A stretch of DNA of 63,273 nucleotides, counting the filler, from Rhabdomonas costata (lineage: Eukaryota), in the NCBI GenBank assembly GCA_019059605.1. It is 38 parts of 38 records of this genome, joined end to end, with 100 filler letters (N's around TTAATTAATTAA, not from the genome) between each part and the next. Parts side by side here need not be neighbours in the genome. Positions count along the whole stretch, not along the records: positions 50,045 to 51,611 come from JAHMHO010012891.1; 37 more parts are not named here. One strand, written 5' to 3'. Both the position numbers and the translations under genes were made by a program. Numbering within the stretch: position 1 is the first letter of the stretch; the number at the start of each line of letters is the position of its first letter. The notes under the pieces were generated by a model. The model did not search any database and was not told the origin of the DNA. It worked only from the letters and a program-made list of their open reading frames with translations. Below, one piece after another: positions 3 through 58,270 of this stretch.

Positions 3-1167
3 GGGGGTTTCTATCTGGACGAGCTCCTGGAGCGCCAGGACGCCACCCACAGCGTGCTGGTCGCTGAGGTGTCTGTTTTTGTATGTCGGGAGGTGTGGGG
101 GGATATTTTTCCCAGGGTTAAATCCCAGTGTTGCCTCACTGGGTTATTCGTGGACAGCTGGCCCCACACAGCCACTCATGGTGCTCAGAAGGTTGGGGGT
201 ACCTGCGCAGCCCCTTAATGTATGCCCTGCCATGATATCTTATGCGGTGCTATGACCGTGATGTGATTAACTAACTTTCAGGGAGGGGGCTGATACATGT
301 AACCTAGATTCTCTTACACTAAATAAAGTCATTTCTAGTGTGCTGGTGCATTTCACTTAATCCTTCGGAAGTTAATGATTGTAGATTTCACCACCATTTA
401 CCATTACCCCCTCCTGAAGCTTAGGTGGGAGCCATACACACTCATGCACTTGCGCTGTGGTTTTTTAGTCTGCACGGTAAAGCTTTGAAGTTGCCGTGGA
501 TGGTAGTTTACCCTCTTTACAACCGCACACTGCCGCAAATTTTACTTGCAGGTTGTTGTCTTCTGTGCTTGTGCATGGTTTGAAGGGAGGGAGCCCCACT
601 CCAGTCCGATCCAAGGTCCGCAGTCACCAGTGCTTCAATCGGTGTTCCTCTCTTGGTTATCTGCTTGCAGGATGGCGAGACGGGCCAGATTGTGGGTCTG
701 ATGTGCATGACCAGCGTGCCCGAGGACCAGCAGTACGTAGTGAAGCACTTCAGCTGCGAGCCCTTCCAGAAGCTGAAGCGGGTCCTCCCCGCCCCGGGAC
801 ACTCCGCCACTCCCACCGGCGGCACTACCGCGGCCGCCGCGGCGGCCTCGCTGAAGAACAGCTTCACCATCACCTTCTTCTACCTCAGCCCCGACTTCGA
901 GTGCCGCGCCGTGGACTTCGTGCGGGCGGGGTTCCGGGAGTTCCCTGCGGCGGAGTACGGGGTGGTGCGGCTGCCGCACAGCATCCCCGACCACCCCTTG
1001 CTGGCCACCGCGCAGTACGTCCCGCTGAAGCAGGGACTGACCCTCCGGCTGGGGTGCTTCCTGCTGTGCCGCTACGCCCTAGAGGAGCTCACGGTGCGGC
1101 CCGCGGGGCCGGAGGACGTGCAGGGCATCGCTCACCTCCTGGCCACACCGGGCGGGGACACTTCAAA
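3..1167 (+). CDS. CFAP61: Cilia- and flagella-associated protein 61, N-terminal region (2 exons, partial)
   Basis: Exons 3-68 (GGFYLDELLERQDATHSVLVAE) and 671-1167 (DGETGQIVGLMCM...NSFTITFFYLSPDFECRAVDFVRAGFREFPAAEYGVVRLPHSIPDHPLL...) join in phase 0 across a GT-AG intron 69-670. Motif order matches the CFAP61 N-terminal domain as I recall it. Confidence 0.85.
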
Positions 1168-1569
1168 GTTCGCCTCTGCCTCTCTCTCTCTCTTTGGGTG
1201 TGTAGATGTGCGTGTGTGATCTGGTTCACGGCCACGGTTGGCAGCAGAGGCTCCAGTTGAATCACAACCGGTGAGAATGAGCTTGGAAACATAGTCTGCG
1301 TTTTGAAACTTCGGTACGTACCCCAGCCAGTTCTGTGCATCCTCGAAACTGGAGAACAAGATGATTCAGCAGTTTGCCCCATCTTGCTGTGTGTGTATGT
1401 GTACAAACCTGCACTCCCGCACCGGCACCTCAAACTAAACAATTTGGGTTTATATCCGATTTTTTTACCTCGACGCCCTTCCGCAAAAGGCCCCCAATCC
1501 GAGCCCCGTGGCTAATCGCATTGCGCGAACTCACCCCGCGATGTGTGTGAAGCGGGACGGGGTGAAAAA

Positions 1570-13344: not shown

Positions 13345-14678
13345 GTGTTGGATGTGTTTGGGTTGTGGGGGGTCAAGAAGACCTGCTCTTGGGGCCACGC
13401 CGAGGGAGGTGGGTTTGCCGCAGGTGGTCTGGAAGCTGAAGCTTCTTGCGACCGCAGGGCGAGCCCTCTCTGCTGCTGCTGGTGCTCAGAACTTGAGGAA
13501 TACTGCCCCGCAGAAGGTTGGCCCTGGTACTGAGCCTGATACGGCTGCTGCTGCTGCTGCTGATAAGGGGTCTGAGCGTAGTCTTGAGGCTGCTGCTGCG
13601 AAGAGTAGCCCTGTTGCTGCTGCTGCTGCTGCTGCTGTGGCTGCTGGGGGTGGTTGTACTGCTGCACTTGCTGGTAGTAATTCGGTTGCGACTGGGTTTG
13701 GGCTTGGGATTGCTGCTGTTGCTGCGACGGGTAGGCCTGCTGGGGTTGTTGCGAGGACTGATAATAAGACTGAGCTTGAGATGTTGTGGCCGCGGTGGGT
13801 CGAGACTGCTGTGTGGACCCCTGCTGTGAGTAGGCGGGCTGAGTCACGGAGTACTGTGAGCTCGGCTGGGAGGGGTACTGGCCCTTTTGTTCGCAGCACA
13901 ATACAGAAAAGTCCCGCGTCAAACCAAGTACCAGCATAAATGAAAAGAAGCAGAACAAAAGCAAAGAGGCGAAAGCGGCGGCATCGTTCGGGGTTAGATT
14001 GAAGAGGAGGGGAGACAAGAGAAGGGAAGGATGTCCGAGGTATAAGACAGAGACTGGCCTTTGGTGCATATGCCATGGTAGGGTTAAGAGTGATGCATGG
14101 GAACAGCGGAATCCAAAATAGCAAGATAGATTTTCGGGGTGGGGTTGGTGAACCTGGGCCTGCTGTGCAGTGGCGGCCTGGTACTGCGATTGTGACTGAA
14201 AAAAAGCAACAAACAAAAAATCAAGTACAGGAAAAAGATCCCTGTCAAAAATGGAGAGAAAGAGAGAACGAGGAGAACTGACGTTTTGGGGCCCGAGCAC
14301 CCCCCCCCCAAGAAGACAAAAGGAACAAACCGGAGCGGCAGAAGCCTGCGACTGATAGCTGTAGCCATACGAAGAGGCATCTCCACCACTTGCAGCGTAG
14401 TTCGTGGAACCAGCAGCGGAGTAGCCGTCGTAGGAGGTCGGCGTTGCTGCGACAGCGAACGTAACAAAGAAGACCAATCGTTCGTCCTGTTCGGATGCCT
14501 GTTTGCACATGGAAGCGAAAACAAACCAGAGGAGTAGTAACCATGGTTTTGGTTTGCCGCCGCTGCCGAGCTGGTTGCTGTCTCTGAGGCCGCCACGGCC
14601 ACCCCCGCCCCCGGCGAAACGCTGTATTGGGAATAGGCGGGGTTCTGCTGGGTGGAATACGACTGATCGTAAGAATAT
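13345..14678 (-). CDS. Gln/Tyr/Ser/Gly-rich prion-like low-complexity protein (4 exons, partial)
   Basis: Exons 14678-14527, 14446-14331, 14195-14154 and 13883-13345 join with phase-compatible GT-AG introns; poly-Q tracts. Confidence 0.8.
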
Positions 14679-20026: not shown

Positions 20027-20130
20027 GGAAGGAGGGTTTCTTGGTATACTATGGTCCAGCCGGGCCATGGGCCTGGCCTATAGAGCCCATGGCCCGGCTG
20101 GACCATAGTATACCAAGAAACCCTCCTTCC
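20027..20130. repeat. Contig-terminal inverted repeat, 46-bp perfect arms, 12-nt loop
   Basis: 20027-20072 is the reverse complement of 20085-20130. Confidence 0.95.
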
Positions 20131-20428
20131 TACAAATGCGCAAGCACCTCATCAGTCAGCGGTGCAGGCGAAAGCATCCTTCACCAGGTGTCCGGAGAAC
20201 CGTATGTGAAAATGATGGCAGTGAAGTTGACGGGGAGAGGATGAGAAAAGACTGAGGCCAATGAAAACCCTGTGCCATTAAGGCTGATTTCTCCAATGAC
20301 TGGCATTGCATACTAAAAAACCACTCTGACCACTTTGTGGACGGTGGGTTAAAAGGGAGTGGAGACGACCGGGAGTTTGTTTGTGTGCATGTGAGAGTGC
20401 CTCTCTTCGACCCTCGTATGACGCGCAC

Positions 20429-21571
20429 CGGAAGAAGCATCGCAACTGCGTGTACGTCAGTGCGGTGTCGCGACCGCGGAAGATCTTCGCGACGAATGTC
20501 CCGCCCTCCTTCAGCACAAACGTGGTGATCGTCAGGGCGGACAGCAGTAGCTGCGCCTGCATGTACTCGTCAATGTCGTGCATCCCCGTGACGTCGGGAG
20601 CGCCGTCGCACACCACCAAATCCTGGGGGGGAAGGGGGGAAGGGCACCCTTACTGCCACACCTTTCTCAAACTCACCATTACTCAACAGTACATCACGTT
20701 CTGTAAACCCGAGCCCCCACCATTTGGCTGTGTGGGTGTGTCTGTCGCCAACAATTACGGGCTGTTGCTAGTATTGGTAATTTCGCTTTTTTTTTGGCAC
20801 GCATGGTCAGCTTGACCCGGACGTCAATCGGATTAGATATCTCGCAGAACAAAGCAGACTCTTAGGGTGCTGCTGGAGGAAAGGAAAATGTGCTTTGATC
20901 ACCCAGGGTGCGGGCTGCGCAAAGGGGGGGCACTTCAGAAAATGCACCATTGAAGAGCGGCACACCAACATCCAAACAGACTGACGCAGAGAAAGTGAGA
21001 AAGCTTGGGAGGAGACCGCCTTGTGCCCTCCACAGAGCTCAATGATCCGCTCGGCGGTCTCCGTGGAGGTGATGTCGCCCTGCAACAGGTGTACTCCTGC
21101 GCGTCACAATCCCAACCCTCATCTCTCCCATCACTTGGGTGTCAGACGTCACCCCCACCTGCGACGGATGCACTCTGCAAATTAAGCACCAAGATGGGAT
21201 GACGGATACTTTTCAAATCGCTTTCCAATGAATGGCAAAGAAAAGGGTGGGAACTGGCGTCGCTATTGGGGATATATCATTTGCTTGGAATATTCAACAC
21301 TTTGTGCCATTGTGTGAAGGCTCAAACTCCTACCAACCTAACTAGAAGTGCAGCACTGCCCAGCGAGGTGCGCGCATGTGAATGTGCGGATTAGGTCCTC
21401 ACTCAGTTCCCCTTGCATACACTAGCCTGGGATGGGGGCCATCTCCTGCAAGTCGACAGCGACGATGCTGACTCCATCGTCTGGGGACGATGCCGTACTC
21501 TCGCCGATTGAGTGCGCGCCACTCGCGGAGGCCTCCGTCCCCGATCCGCGGCGAAGCTCGCGAGAGAGCAC
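20429..21571 (-). CDS. TRM7: tRNA (cytidine32/guanosine34-2'-O)-methyltransferase, FtsJ family, partial
   Basis: Exons 21571-21427, 21096-21017 and 20622-20429 give VLSREL...[24 protein letters not shown]...[27 protein letters not shown]...[11 protein letters not shown]. Confidence 0.93.
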
Positions 21572-33430: not shown

Positions 33431-34486
33431 CTTCGCGTGGAGCGACTCCATGAAGGTCATTGCGGCATGCGGAGGAGACCGTGGCGTCCAGCTCTGGTGT
33501 GCTGCACCTCGACTGTGAAAAAAGGCAGCGTGCGAATTTTTCGGTTGCGTCGATCGGGCCTTCCTCCGGTTGTTGGGTTCCATTCCTCGGTGTCGAGAGG
33601 ACACTTTTTGGACCGTTTGCAATTTTCTGGGCTGCGCAGCATGCCCAAGGGTTGGATGTAGTTGACCGGAATGCTTTGGCTTTGTAGTTGCTCTCTTGAG
33701 CTCCCAATTTTTATTTTTGTCTTAGTGTTTTTTCTTCTTTTTTTTTTGCTGTTTTTTCAGTCGCAGACAGAATGGTGAGCGATTGAAACCTTTTTACTCG
33801 TCTGCGATTTTGATTCTGATATCCTGGTATTTTGCATTTGTTTCTCAATCATATCAGTCCACTTTATGTTCCTTTTTCTTCACAGGAACCCTTGGATGCC
33901 TGATCCTATCCTCAGCCTGCACGGGCACAACGCGAACGTCGTTGCATGCGCGTTCAACGACACTGACGAACAACTCATCAGCCTTTCGGTTGACAACACC
34001 GTTGTCGTGTGGGACATGAGAACATACAAGGTTGAACCACACCCTCGGCTTTTTTCTTGGGTCTATTTTGCTTCCGCTCTCTTTTTTCATCGGCCAGTGG
34101 AATATGGACACCTGCAACTTCAGAAGGGCTTGGTTTTGCTTTTTTGTGGAATTTTTTTGAAGAAAAAACTCTTTGCTTCTTTCAGATCTTTCAGCAGTGG
34201 ACGGACACCACCTCCTCGGCGCTGCGCTCCGCACATCACATCGACGACGGGCACGTCTCTGCTCTGACCTTCGACGAGAGCCATGGGCGGCTGGTGCTTG
34301 CTTCGACCTTCCCACAGACCCACTGCGTGTTCCGGCACATGACCAACTTTGTGCAGGGCTACAGCGGCCACACCGAGCCCGTGCTGGCTGCGCTGTACAA
34401 CACAACCTTCAACCAGATCATCACGGTGGACCAGGCCACGGCCCACATTTGGCACCCCGACACAGGAGAGAAGGTCTTTCGGCAGG
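33431..34486 (+). CDS. WD40 protein, WDR49/WDR64-like, partial
   Basis: Exons 33431-33496, 33886-34030 and 34186-34486: LWNPWMPDPILSLHGHNANVV...QLISLSVDNTVVVWD...GHTEPVLAALYNTTFNQIITVD...IWHPDTGEKVF. Confidence 0.8.
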
Positions 34487-34767: not shown

Positions 34768-34923
34768 TGGTTTTTGCGGTGCCGTCTTTTTCGGAAAACA
34801 TTCTTGTTTCGCAATTCCCACGATCTAAGGACATTTTTTCCCGAGACCATCTCGAGACCATTTAGGAGTGAGGGAGTTGCGAAACAAGAATGTTTTCCGA
34901 AAAAGACGGCACCGCAAAAACCA
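34768..34923. repeat. Contig-terminal inverted repeat, 52-bp arms (1 mismatch), 52-nt spacer
   Basis: 34768-34819 vs 34872-34923. Confidence 0.95.
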
Positions 34924-49150: not shown

Positions 49151-50044
49151 GATTACCAGAAAACATTTTTTCAGCAATTCCTTGCAGCAACATTGTTTTA
49201 GAAACAGTTAATGATTTGAGGAAGTACTACCTAAATGACCAATTGGTCAGGAATAAGTAATTCCTGGATGACACTGAAACTTTTATTGACTTGTTTCCAC
49301 CATTACCGCATTTGTGAACATAATCTGATTTTTGTACCATAATTGTGGTCCAAGGAGATCATTTTTTTGATGACGCCGGGAGCTGCAAGAAACGGCAATG
49401 CAAGAGATGCCGGTGGGCAAGGTGTGGTGGTACCAAATGTGCTTCCAAAAAAGCCACGCAGCAATCCAAACTCCTTCCTTTCTGTACATAATGATTAGTC
49501 TAAATTGTTCCGCTTTCGCCGCATACGCGGTGTTTCTCTAGTTTCGCCACCAAGACTGGTAACCGACTACCGGGATACTCGTTGCGTCTGATGACCAGAA
49601 AACAGAGACATGTGAATCCTGATCGAGATAAAATTCCACACAGCAGCTCCAATGTGATAAAGCAGCTCTTCAATTACGGGCGCAGCTGAACACAATGCAG
49701 GCAGTAAATTGCCGTAGTAATAAAGTAGGGCGCAAGGTTCCATACATGTTAAATCATTTTGTGCAAAGGATTCACAAAAACCGTGGTGTGATGGGACTTG
49801 AGCGTCAACAAAAAGCTGTTCCTACTGTTGTCTTTCCATGCTTTACCGTGGATTTGTAGTATTTGAATGCCGTACTTTTCAAGGCCCTTTCGGGCCACAA
49901 ATGAGCTAGGGAGAAATAGAACAACGGGAGAAGCCCAATAAAACNNNNNNNNNNNNNNNNNNNNNNNNNNNNNNNNNNNNNNNNNNNNTTAATTAATTAA
50001 NNNNNNNNNNNNNNNNNNNNNNNNNNNNNNNNNNNNNNNNNNNN

Positions 50045-51385
50045 AGCAAACACCATCAGCGCAGAGGTCAGCTTAGAGAGCTCCCGGTCGCCCATCCACC
50101 TCAGAGTGGCCTGAGGGACGTACACCTTCACCGTTTGCACCCCAGAGCTCTGGCCAAGGTCGGCCAGGGCCCACAGGGCAGCCGCGGTGATTCCTGGGTG
50201 CTGCCCTAAGTCCACGGTGAGGTGCCGCAGCCTGGAGCCCTCCCTGGCCAAGGGCAGCAGGGCTTGGGTGGCACGGTCGGTGAGCCGGGGGTTTCCACTG
50301 AGGGCGAGCCTTAGTGAGCGAAGAGTGGAGAGCCCAGCCAGGAAACTCAACCCAGCGTCGGATATTTTGCACTTGCGGAGGTTGAGCTCCAAGTTAGTCA
50401 GTGCAGGGCACTGGATAAGCCCCGAGACCACTTCCGCACCGGTGTCCCCAAGCGGGCTGCCAGTGAGGTTCAGGGTTCCCGGGTTCGGATTCGGGGCGAG
50501 CGGTCCCCAGAACATTCTAGTCTTATGCCCCAAAATGCACGACCTTCCGTGGACGAACATCGGATGTCTTTTTCCGATTTCATTTCGAAGTGCGAGATTA
50601 CGACGATACACCCACCTAGATATTCTACCACTGGCGAAGCGCTAGGCTTTACCCCCACCTCCAATGTAGCTGGTGCCCTGTTCTTCGGGCCGGACGTTCC
50701 CCGAAACCCGAACCCATTTCAACACCACTTTGGACACCATGGGCATGGAGGTCAGAGCTTGCACAAGGCAGCGGACGGCACCTGCAGATACCCCAGCGGA
50801 CTTCACCGAGAGGCTTCGCACCGCACTGAAGCACCCCAGGAACTCCGCGCCAGCAAAACTAGGCTGGCTTCTCACCCGCATCCCAGCATCACACAGATTC
50901 CCGCTCAACCGAAGGTCAGTGAGCGCCAACGACCCCTTCAGAGGGCTCAAGGCCCACCGCAGTGAATCCGGGGAGAGGGCGTCGTTGCCCTCCAGCTGCA
51001 AGCCAAGACTAACGATCCTGGAGTTCTGTGCTACCGAGGCCAGGTGGTGCACCCCTTGGGATGAGAGGTCATTCTCACGAAGATCCACGAGCAACGCTGT
51101 CAAAGCGGGGCTAGCCTTCACCCCGGCTGCGAGGGAAACCACAAAGGCGTCCCCCACCCCACACCGCGGCAAGTGCAAGGTGAGCTCCGACAGCCGAGGG
51201 GCCGTGAGGGCCCGAGCCAAAGGGCCAGCCGCTGGAAAGCCCCCCGTGGCGTACACATGGAGGCTCTTCAGAGAGACCGACTTCCCCAGCCGCCCAAGGG
51301 CGGCGTTCCAGATGGGATCGGGTCTGCCCGAAACGGAAACAAATCCGTAGCCCATGCAGCTGTTGCTGCCGCGGTTGCAGACCAC
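50045..51385 (-). CDS. RNI-like leucine-rich repeat protein, partial, interrupted by a 249-nt insertion
   Basis: Repeats LSELTLHLPRCGVGD, LTALLVDLRENDLSS, LTNLELNLRKCKISDAG and LRSLRLALSGNPRLTD; the two ORF-track ORFs are in the same frame. Confidence 0.85.
50472..50720 (-). other. Candidate nonconventional (non-GT/AG) intron or MITE-like insertion
   Basis: Removal gives VSKVVL|NLTGSPLGDTG in LRR register; contains an in-frame stop; ends are complementary; TGAA is repeated at both junctions. Confidence 0.7.
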
Positions 51386-51718
51386 AGGGGGTTGATGTGT
51401 AATTTACATGGCACTGGACCGATATGTGAGCAGTGGTTCCCCACAGCGCGAAAGTTCGTTCATGATAACATGACAAAACGGTACCAATTGGAAACGTTTT
51501 GCCTATTTCTCCGGTGGTGCAGGCTTGAATCTGAAATGCACCCACCGCTGCGATAGTGCCCTCGAAAGAGCGGAAAGAAAGAGCAGGAGGACACACGTAA
51601 GAGTTCCCAAANNNNNNNNNNNNNNNNNNNNNNNNNNNNNNNNNNNNNNNNNNNNTTAATTAATTAANNNNNNNNNNNNNNNNNNNNNNNNNNNNNNNNN
51701 NNNNNNNNNNNTGTTTGT

Positions 51719-51798
51719 GGGTGGTGTCTCGTTCCTTCCAACGCTGATCCTTCCACCGCGGTGGAAGGATCAGCGTTGGAAGGAACGAGACACCACCC
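51719..51798. repeat. Perfect 80-bp palindrome at contig start
   Basis: Centred on ccgcgg 51756-51761; no loop. Confidence 0.95.
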
Positions 51799-57303: not shown

Positions 57304-58162
57304 ATGGGCATTGCTGCGTCGGAGCTCGAGTGCGCCATGGGCCCGCATCCACGCGTTGTGAGCACTCCACACGAGCCGGCGATTCACGTCCGTGAGCTTC
57401 TCCAGACCGCCCGCACCGGTGACTTACTGATCATCTCTGGCACAAACCCCAAGCACAAGTTGATTCGGACGGTGTCGCTCTCCCGCTGGTCACACGTCGG
57501 GTTGATTATCCGGGACCCGGACCCGGAGCTGCTCCAGAAGTTTGGATGGACTGCACCTCACAGAGGACCGGGCATTTTGCCATACTGCCGGGCATATCTC
57601 AGCGAGAAAGTATGGTTACTGGACATTACTCCGGGTAAGTTCTCCCTTGCTCTTGGCCTTGCGCCTATTACGCTCTTCTTCAGGATATTTTTTGTCTTGC
57701 AGTCGACGGCAAAGGATATCCACGATAGCGGAGACGGCACAATGACCCCACACACACAACACGACACACTGCCTTCTCCATTTCTTATCTCTCCTTGCAT
57801 GTTCTGGTGCAACGTTCAACAGGCTCTTCACCACATGTGGTTGTAGGAGAGTCACAGAGTATTCTCTCTTTGGTTTGGTGCACGGCACTTCCTGGGGACA
57901 CTGCTGTTTTATTTCATTCGTTTCATAGCATCTGGCCGTCCTCAGCTGCGACCGCTCGTGGAGGCGTTTGCCGTATGGACCTCCATGGAATACCACGGTC
58001 CCGGCGTGCTCGTGGGATACCGGCGGCTGTCCGTCCCAGGAGGTGCCCTGGACCAGACACGGTGGCTCTTCTTGCGGCAGTGGTTGCTCGAGGTCGTGGG
58101 AAGGAAGTTTGTGTCATATCCAGAGCTTCTCATGGCAGTGCTCCCAGTCAACCAGGCGCTTC
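57304..58162 (+). CDS. Permuted papain-like NlpC/P60 (YiiX/YebB-like) protein, partial
   Basis: RTGDLLIISG...LIRTVSLSRWSHVGLII; exon 57304-57634 joins 57929 in phase 1; 3' end confounded by a fold-back. Confidence 0.7.
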
Positions 58163-58270
58163 AGACTCTCAGCCACCAGCTGGCTGCAGAACAACTTGCT
58201 GAGTTGGTCGCGGCGAAGCGCCTGGTTGACTGGGAGCACTGCCATGAGAAGCTCTGGGTATGACACAAAC
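58107..58270. repeat. Contig-terminal inverted repeat of coding sequence, 56-bp arms (1 mismatch), 52-nt spacer
   Basis: 58107-58162 vs 58215-58270. Confidence 0.95.

Follow-up and report, generated by a model that had tools for sequence, protein, structure and literature searches.

A frame-restoring 249-nt segment in a leucine-rich repeat gene of Rhabdomonas costata as a candidate nonconventional intron with transposon-like ends

Is the segment that interrupts a leucine-rich repeat (LRR) gene of Rhabdomonas costata removed from the transcript as an intron, and, if so, where do its borders lie? The window, that is the whole stretch of DNA analysed here (63,273 nucleotides with filler, from assembly GCA_019059605.1), is made up of 38 contigs of 1560-1576 bp with linkers (N44-TTAATTAATTAA-N44) between them, and its 59,573 real bases have a GC content of 0.518. 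The insert is located in the contig at 50045-51611, on the minus strand of which two stop-to-stop ORFs (50642-51403 and 49997-50641) lie in one frame with a single TAG between them. An earlier note on this DNA had described two same-frame LRR ORFs split by a stop-containing segment, an observation that we reproduce, and had proposed that 249 nt at this position behave as an intron lacking GT/AG borders.

The interrupted gene encodes RNI-type LRRs, and its downstream part matches Pfam LRR_6 (E = 1.4e-6). A full HMMER scan with the read-through protein returned 612 proteins at E ≤ 0.001 and 29 at E ≤ 1e-10, with none at E ≤ 1e-30 and none above 50% identity; the matches are generic RNI-type LRR proteins only, and the best homologue in the representative library is 35% identical (E = 1.7e-29). 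A word-indexed protein search with the same query, covering near and longer lengths, gave no matches at E ≤ 0.001. The homologues cover residues 30-195 of the read-through protein, and the alignments of one of them, P0003, begin exactly at LNLTGSPLGDTGA, in the downstream exon part. The upstream exon part probably starts after a conventional acceptor, ...tttgtttccgtttcgggcag↓, with its AG at 51325-51324 (here and below, an arrow marks an exon border). The features of the locus are collected in Table 1.

Table 1 Features of the interrupted LRR gene and two further Pfam-matched genes in the window
Feature	Position	Strand	Basis
Upstream exon part, RNI-type LRR gene	50720..51323	-	Open frame; GC3 0.73; homologue alignments
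249-nt intervening segment (model a)	50472..50720	-	Frame restoration; no Pfam or Rfam family; GC3 0.57
In-frame TAG stop in the 249-nt segment	50642..50644	-	Only in-frame stop there
Direct repeat TGAA, 5' copy (TTCA on the plus strand)	50718..50721	-	Sequence
Direct repeat TGAA, 3' copy (TTCA on the plus strand)	50469..50472	-	Sequence
Terminal helix / inverted repeat, 5' arm UGGGUUCGGGUUUCGGGG	50699..50716	-	Repeat search and fold
Terminal helix / inverted repeat, 3' arm CCCCGAAUCCGAACCCG	50480..50496	-	Repeat search and fold
Alternative 234-nt excision (model b)	50480..50713	-	Euglena code and stacked pairs; disfavoured by homologues
Downstream exon part, LRR gene, to contig end	50045..50470	-	Pfam LRR_6; GC3 0.76
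FtsJ	20281-20649	-	Pfam
WD40	33779-34264	+	Pfam

Cutting out the 249 nt joins ...MPMVSKVVL↓NLTGSPLGDTG..., for which the predicted nucleotide junction is GTGTTGAACCTC (VVL↓NL). The LRR unit restored in this way has 29 residues, the other units having 26-34, and its spacing, P-x-L-x-x-L-x-L-x-L-(5)-L/I-x-D-x-G, equals that of the next unit, CPALTNLELNLRKCKISDAG, position for position, as the earlier note had proposed. In codon register the segment spans 50471-50719, which gives the same mRNA as 50472-50720. Because TGAA is present at both junctions, there are five placements of the cut (50473-50721 to 50469-50717) with one identical mRNA, and their terminal dinucleotides are TG..CC, GA..CT, AA..TG, AA..GA and AT..AA. 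The placement 50720/50472 has T↓G, a pyrimidine-purine step, at both ends. By our own calculation, about 1.6% of random junctions would by chance allow a slide of at least 4 nt. A CAG/CTG pair at +4..6 and -8..-6 is absent from all five placements, none of which has a C at +4. The duplicated TGAA, the single pyrimidine-purine placement and the missing CAG/CTG pair had all been pointed out before, and each of these observations holds.

Canonical alternatives (GT-AG, GC-AG and AT-AC) were enumerated by combining all donors between 50800 and 50640 with all acceptors between 50600 and 50400. None of the 76 in-frame, stop-free pairs restores the LRR unit; all add or delete residues, and the restoration of both frame and repeat unit by the 249-nt excision has no equivalent among them. 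If this excision is the real one, its borders are of neither GT/GC-AG nor AT-AC type. The earlier note had missed, however, that the in-frame GT-AG pair 50723/50457, whose donor hexamer is used elsewhere in the window, is a live rival.

No orthologue was found that could fix the junction directly, and we therefore used distant homologues to rank the junction models, taking the best 150 of the 612 and considering an alignment only if it runs across the junction. The 249-nt junction was preferred to the 234-nt model in 92 of 99 cases (6 for the 234-nt model, 1 tie), and in 89 of 92 in a second run. It was likewise preferred to the GT-AG pair 50723/50457 in 76 of 104 (27 against), to the AT-AC pair 50717/50475 in 73 of 99 (26 against), to 50713/50474 in 75 of 93 (16 against), to two further GT-AG pairs in 90 of 103 and 88 of 99, and to the pair 50683/50399, which fits the Euglena code discussed below, in 87 of 98. 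Since LRR loops tolerate insertions and deletions, this comparison ranks the models and proves none of them. Donors of U12-type AT-AC introns follow an ATATCC-like consensus. The nearest AT-AC pair, 50717/50475, starts with ATGGGT, lacks a U12-type donor and would add two residues to the protein. U2-type pairs that keep the frame exist (50723/50457 is an example), each of which alters the residue count and scores below the 249-nt junction.

The ends of the segment are inverted copies of one another. Aligned without gaps, the arms at 50481-50496 and 50700-50715 are complementary at 13 of 16 nt (81%), and folding of the RNA pairs 50716-50699 with 50480-50496 in a 17-bp helix that has a single bulged U and includes two G-U pairs; the four pairs that were checked have probabilities of 0.98-0.995. 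The terminal duplex amounts to -31.2 kcal/mol, a value reached by 22 of 25,080 virtual 249-nt segments tiled over all contigs on both strands, and these 22 include shifted copies of the target as well as contig-end palindromes. The arms begin 8 nt and 2 nt inside the direct-repeat copies. Folding of the segment as a whole is unexceptional (z = -1.42; 18 of 200 shuffles fold as well), so that the terminal helix alone stands out. Thus the fold suggested in the earlier note confirms the paired ends that it had seen on the minus strand, and its description of a structured insertion is right for the terminal helix but not for the entire segment. A G/A difference between the two arms still pairs as G-U in the RNA; in this single case, the preserved pairing is in keeping with selection that acts on the RNA and not on the DNA ends.

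In composition, the insert is non-coding-like, as judged from its in-frame GC3 relative to both exon parts (Table 1). The presence of one stop in its 83 codons is unremarkable (P = 0.10 on shuffles). We also considered read-through of the TAG, with the segment as a coding insert, and rejected it because the 83 residues belong to no Pfam family and the GC3 is that of non-coding sequence. Rfam returned no families in the window, nor in 50400-50800 at E ≤ 10, and a tRNA scan found none; there is accordingly no sign of a tRNA-derived SINE or of an intronic snoRNA.

The remainder of the window supplies the genomic background for this segment. Pfam matches occur in 6 of 234 stop-to-stop ORFs of at least 90 residues and represent eukaryotic exon fragments which, beyond those in Table 1, include RNB, zf-CW plus ARID, C2 and a WDR19-like piece. 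These genes characterise the source as a flagellated eukaryote with a fragmented draft assembly; no marker gene is among them, and a protein-atlas search with an FtsJ exon gave bacterial-looking fragment clusters that were uninformative about the host. A GT-AG intron at 34031-34185 has the donor GTTGAA, and a CAG acceptor lies before 33887. The RNB gene has an AG↓GTGAGT donor, the LRR gene itself has the upstream acceptor ...tttcgggcag↓, and the FtsJ gene contains a GC-AG and a GT-AG intron, the latter with the C-rich tract ...cccttccccccttcccccccag, which resembles the C-rich polypyrimidine tract described as typical of E. gracilis conventional introns (PMC11170887). A GC content of ~0.52, contigs of about 1.5 kb and a preponderance of GT-AG introns are all in keeping with the euglenid drafts published so far. 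Since all other introns that can be delimited in the window are conventional, nonconventional splicing receives no independent support from this genome, and this counts against the explanation that we favour.

Nonconventional introns of euglenids are described as having noncanonical junctions, often pyrimidine↓purine on both sides, inverted termini that draw the two intron ends together, and repeats resembling target-site duplications at the junctions; their insertion at new positions suggests an origin from MITEs, and they leave the transcript after the conventional introns, as full-length circles, by a mechanism that is unknown (PMC11282704). In E. agilis, 71.8% of the introns are nonconventional and 84.4% of all introns are slidable via short direct repeats (Nomura et al. 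2025, PMC12501133). The R. costata segment resembles the nonconventional introns of E. gracilis and E. agilis (Milanowski and co-workers; PMC12501133) in that its frame-restoring borders lack GT/AG, its ends pair, it is slidable via a direct repeat with a Y↓R placement available at both ends, and its host gene also has a conventional intron. Terminal inverted repeats and a target-site duplication, two features of a MITE, are likewise present. The anatomy on which the earlier note had based a euglenid-intron reading therefore corresponds to that in the published accounts (PMC11282704, PMC12501133); removal at the RNA level, the exact cut sites and a transposon origin are what we infer.

A genetically defined signature, 5'-N3CDG...CH'GN5-6↓R, is reported for 61.2% of the E. 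agilis nonconventional introns, and a CGG-CCG motif proved spliceable in knock-in assays (PMC12501133). Unlike Euglena introns that follow this code, the 249-nt placements lack CDG at +4..6 and CH'G at -8..-6 and have spacers of 1-5 and 5-9 nt, compared with 3 and 5-6 nt in the code; the predicted helix of the segment, at 17 bp, is far longer than the few pairs in the published Euglena logos. This mismatch counts against the 249-nt reading. However, because the signature is missing from 38.8% of E. agilis nonconventional introns (PMC12501133), the mismatch does not exclude membership of the nonconventional class, and the separate variant class that had been suggested for the segment is not needed. 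Around the segment, 174 placements are compatible with the signature, of which 51 are in frame and stop-free and 23 of these also have a purine at the exon start; only 50713/50480 and 50683/50399 among the 23 have at least 4 further stacked pairs. Across the window, a loose scan for the code plus a stem gave 3,967 hits, where 20 mononucleotide shuffles averaged 2,930, and a strict scan gave 50 against 35.4 ± 8.1 in 30 dinucleotide shuffles. The strict scan mostly caught perfect palindromes at contig ends and missed the 249-nt target on account of the bulge in its helix. The code plus stem is thus not clearly enriched, and the excess is too weak to show that this genome uses the Euglena code.

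A further published comparison is within R. costata itself, whose introns are mostly GT-AG (PMC8219788) and for which seven candidate nonconventional introns are listed (PMC8219788, Table S6). These start with ↓GC and mostly end with CC↓G, and, by our own reading of the published sequences, have stems of about 9 bp or more that lie 2-10 nt inside the borders. Like them, the insert has a displaced stem, a pyrimidine↓G 3' end and direct repeats at the borders (in the listed set, for example, the 5-nt GCACG), and one listed stem contains GTTCGG/CCGAAC, as does the insert. It differs in starting with ↓GA in the Y↓R placement, where 7 of 7 listed introns start with ↓GC, and shows no sequence similarity to those listed beyond the short stem motif; neither of its 17-nt end strings occurs in the supplement of PMC8219788. 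The Euglena code may not transfer to this species, as its spacers are not conserved in the introns listed for R. costata.

Comparable anatomy is also known from other lineages. Amoebophrya introner elements have inverted repeats of 8-20 nt, direct repeats of 3-5 nt over the borders and variable noncanonical sites, and, in the account of PMC7789003, carry no transposase gene and are read as MITE-like. The insert shares the combination of inverted repeat, direct repeat and noncanonical sites, but the Amoebophrya introners form repeated families in well-assembled genomes of dinoflagellate parasites, whereas the insert is known from one copy, and nothing besides anatomy suggests a link with Amoebophrya. 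In hemistasiid diplonemids, the noncanonical introns likewise have no conserved terminal dinucleotides and have paired G/C-rich ends, with exon flanks that are partly paired as well (PMC12621601). They make up ~97% of the introns there, with median lengths of 37-91 nt (PMC12621601), while the other delimitable introns in the window are conventional. In Micromonas and Aureococcus, too, small elements with inverted repeats and target-site duplications serve as genic introns, but these introners carry or create canonical sites and are removed by the spliceosome (PMC11282704), whereas no canonical pair restores the protein in the case of the insert.

Evidence for mobility of the element was sought in its copy number. 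No further copy was found in the 59,573 bases of the window, and this too counts against the favoured explanation. A metagenome scan for both ends separated by a 190-220-nt gap returned two loci, neither of which is a relative; both consist of GGGTTA/GGGTTC in inverted, telomere-like arrays, have an interior unrelated to that of the insert, and were rejected.

The borders of the segment could be drawn differently. Cut according to the Euglena code, a nonconventional intron of 234 nt, which the earlier note had overlooked, would be removed in frame and leave KWGTL in an LRR loop. Its ends, 5'-GTT-CGG...CCG-AACCCG↓G, fit N3-CDG...CH'G-N6↓R, the exon beginning with a purine, its CGG-CCG pair sits in the strong helix and is the motif proven spliceable by knock-in (PMC12501133), and it is one of the two purine-start placements with additional stacked pairs described above. 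Yet its product breaks the P-x-L-x-x-L-x-L-x-L spacing of the next unit, its borders, which can slide by a single G in either direction, are G↓G and not Y↓R, the homologues prefer the 249-nt junction in both runs, and the code was defined in Euglena, from whose spacers the R. costata introns depart (PMC8219788), so that we regard this excision, 15 nt shorter than the one given by the protein logic, as quite unlikely. We attach a similarly low probability to a conventional or 'intermediate' spliceosomal intron of 267 nt running from GT 50723 to AG 50457, in frame, with the product ...SKV↓VPLGDTG and a shortened repeat. Intermediate introns, which combine GT-AG with end pairing, have been described in euglenids (PMC4770533), the pair is among those that are in frame and stop-free, its donor GTTGAA is also the donor hexamer of the GT-AG intron at 34031, and its acceptor, ...cctcactggcag↓, has CAG like five other acceptors in the window; what speaks against it is the loss of the LNL strand of the unit, which leaves a 23-residue repeat, together with the preference of the homologues for the 249-nt junction.

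The segment might also be no intron. A small inverted-repeat transposon could lie unspliced in the exon, in which case the assembled copy would represent either a disrupted allele or a pseudogene of recent origin. Imperfect inverted ends of 16-17 bp between the copies of a 4-bp duplication are the hallmark of a cut-and-paste element, the in-frame TAG would truncate the protein, and the conventional character of all other introns delimited in the window agrees with such a reading. Against it, both exon parts keep long open frames and high GC3, although a recent insertion would look alike, no other copy was found within the window, and in lineages with genic elements of this type removal at the RNA level is reported (PMC11282704, PMC7789003); we judge an unspliced insertion to be unlikely. 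That a chimeric join during assembly or amplification placed foreign DNA inside the exon is extremely improbable. Artefacts do exist in this assembly, as perfect palindromes with stems of 10-40 bp at several contig ends indicate, but those palindromes are perfect and terminal, whereas the repeat of the insert is internal and imperfect, with a bulge and G-U pairs, and the insert lies between the copies of a 4-nt duplication and is of exactly the length needed to recover both the frame and the LRR unit.

On balance, we lean towards the reading that the 249-nt segment is a euglenid-type nonconventional intron which is removed as a 249-nt unit, and whose most likely ancestor is a small inverted-repeat DNA element that integrated at a TGAA site. 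Its predicted splicing is deduced from the logic of the protein, and its putative MITE origin from anatomy, namely the imperfect inverted ends and the 4-nt duplication. Within the pre-mRNA, pairing of the imperfect inverted ends would form the 17-bp helix, which would keep the TGAA copies at distances from its base of 1-5 nt on the 5' side and 5-9 nt on the 3' side. An activity independent of GT/AG could then cut at or beside the T↓G steps and join the exons, whereupon one TGAA would remain and the LRR unit VSKVVLNLTGSPLGDTG would be restored. Retention of the segment, by comparison, would end translation at the TAG.

A bolder version of this proposal, which we consider doubtful, is that the segment is an inverted-repeat transposon, young and still recognisable, whose duplication and inverted ends themselves act as the excision signal, such that cutting of the RNA would undo the insertion with single-base precision. 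If true, spacers of 1-5 and 5-9 nt without CDG/CH'G would constitute a second rule of nonconventional splicing beside the Euglena code, and would do so in a genome dominated by conventional introns.

Both the kind of intron and the idea of a MITE origin are already published, and the insert is a further example of them, not a new principle. Its interest stems from the fact that it is still unknown how nonconventional introns are removed, and that a transposon origin for them is a hypothesis. As a test substrate, the locus has the advantage that the cut sites predicted by the Euglena code (234 nt) and by the protein (249 nt) differ. The excised unit would amount to one copy of the 4-nt repeat and an element whose inverted ends are long, and the periodicity of the protein provides a check on the outcome; one clean case of this kind shows how a nonconventional intron could arise in a single step.

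The window (1-63273) comprises 38 unrelated contigs of 1560-1576 bp each, joined by N44-TTAATTAATTAA-N44 linkers; no feature may be taken to run from one contig over a linker into the next. A window scan picked up palindromes, perfect or nearly so, whose stems measure 10-40 bp and which lie at the ends of contigs or close to them; their appearance suggests artefacts of amplification or assembly, not a biological origin. The 444-residue open frame at 13347-14678 (-) is low-complexity, with a prion-like composition, and a Pfam search assigned it to no family.

Features located in the window
Feature	Position	Strand	Remark
Open frame	13347-14678	-	444 residues; Q-, S- and Y-rich
Palindrome	20051-20106		at/near contig end
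FtsJ-like gene, introns	20624-21022 and 21107-21435	-	
Conventional GT-AG intron, WD40 gene	34031-34185	+	donor hexamer GTTGAA
Palindrome	34787-34905		at/near contig end
Palindrome	51738-51779		at/near contig end
Palindrome	58115-58259		at/near contig end

Conventional introns occur elsewhere in the window. The FtsJ-like gene carries one GT-AG intron, whose polypyrimidine tract is strikingly C-rich, and one GC-AG intron, slidable by one G. The donor hexamer of the WD40-gene intron recurs at 50723-50718, adjoining the 249-nt segment.

Apart from this segment (50472-50720) itself, the pattern of its inverted ends was matched at just one place in the window, 1491-1506 (-), by GGGCTCGGATTGGGGG with two mismatches, and no partner arm was seen for that match. 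The two metagenome loci matched by the double pattern, L001:360-588 and L002:601-829, are contigs of different records that share a nearly identical inverted array of telomere-like GGGTTA/GGGTTC repeats, oriented oppositely in the two. The inverted ends of the segment resemble degenerate units of these repeats.

In the predicted fold, the exon flanks pair with each other (50724-50728 with 50465-50469), as do nucleotides at the borders (50721-50723 with 50475-50477), and the candidate cut sites therefore come to lie opposite each other across small internal loops. These loops, as modeled, are outside the main helix.
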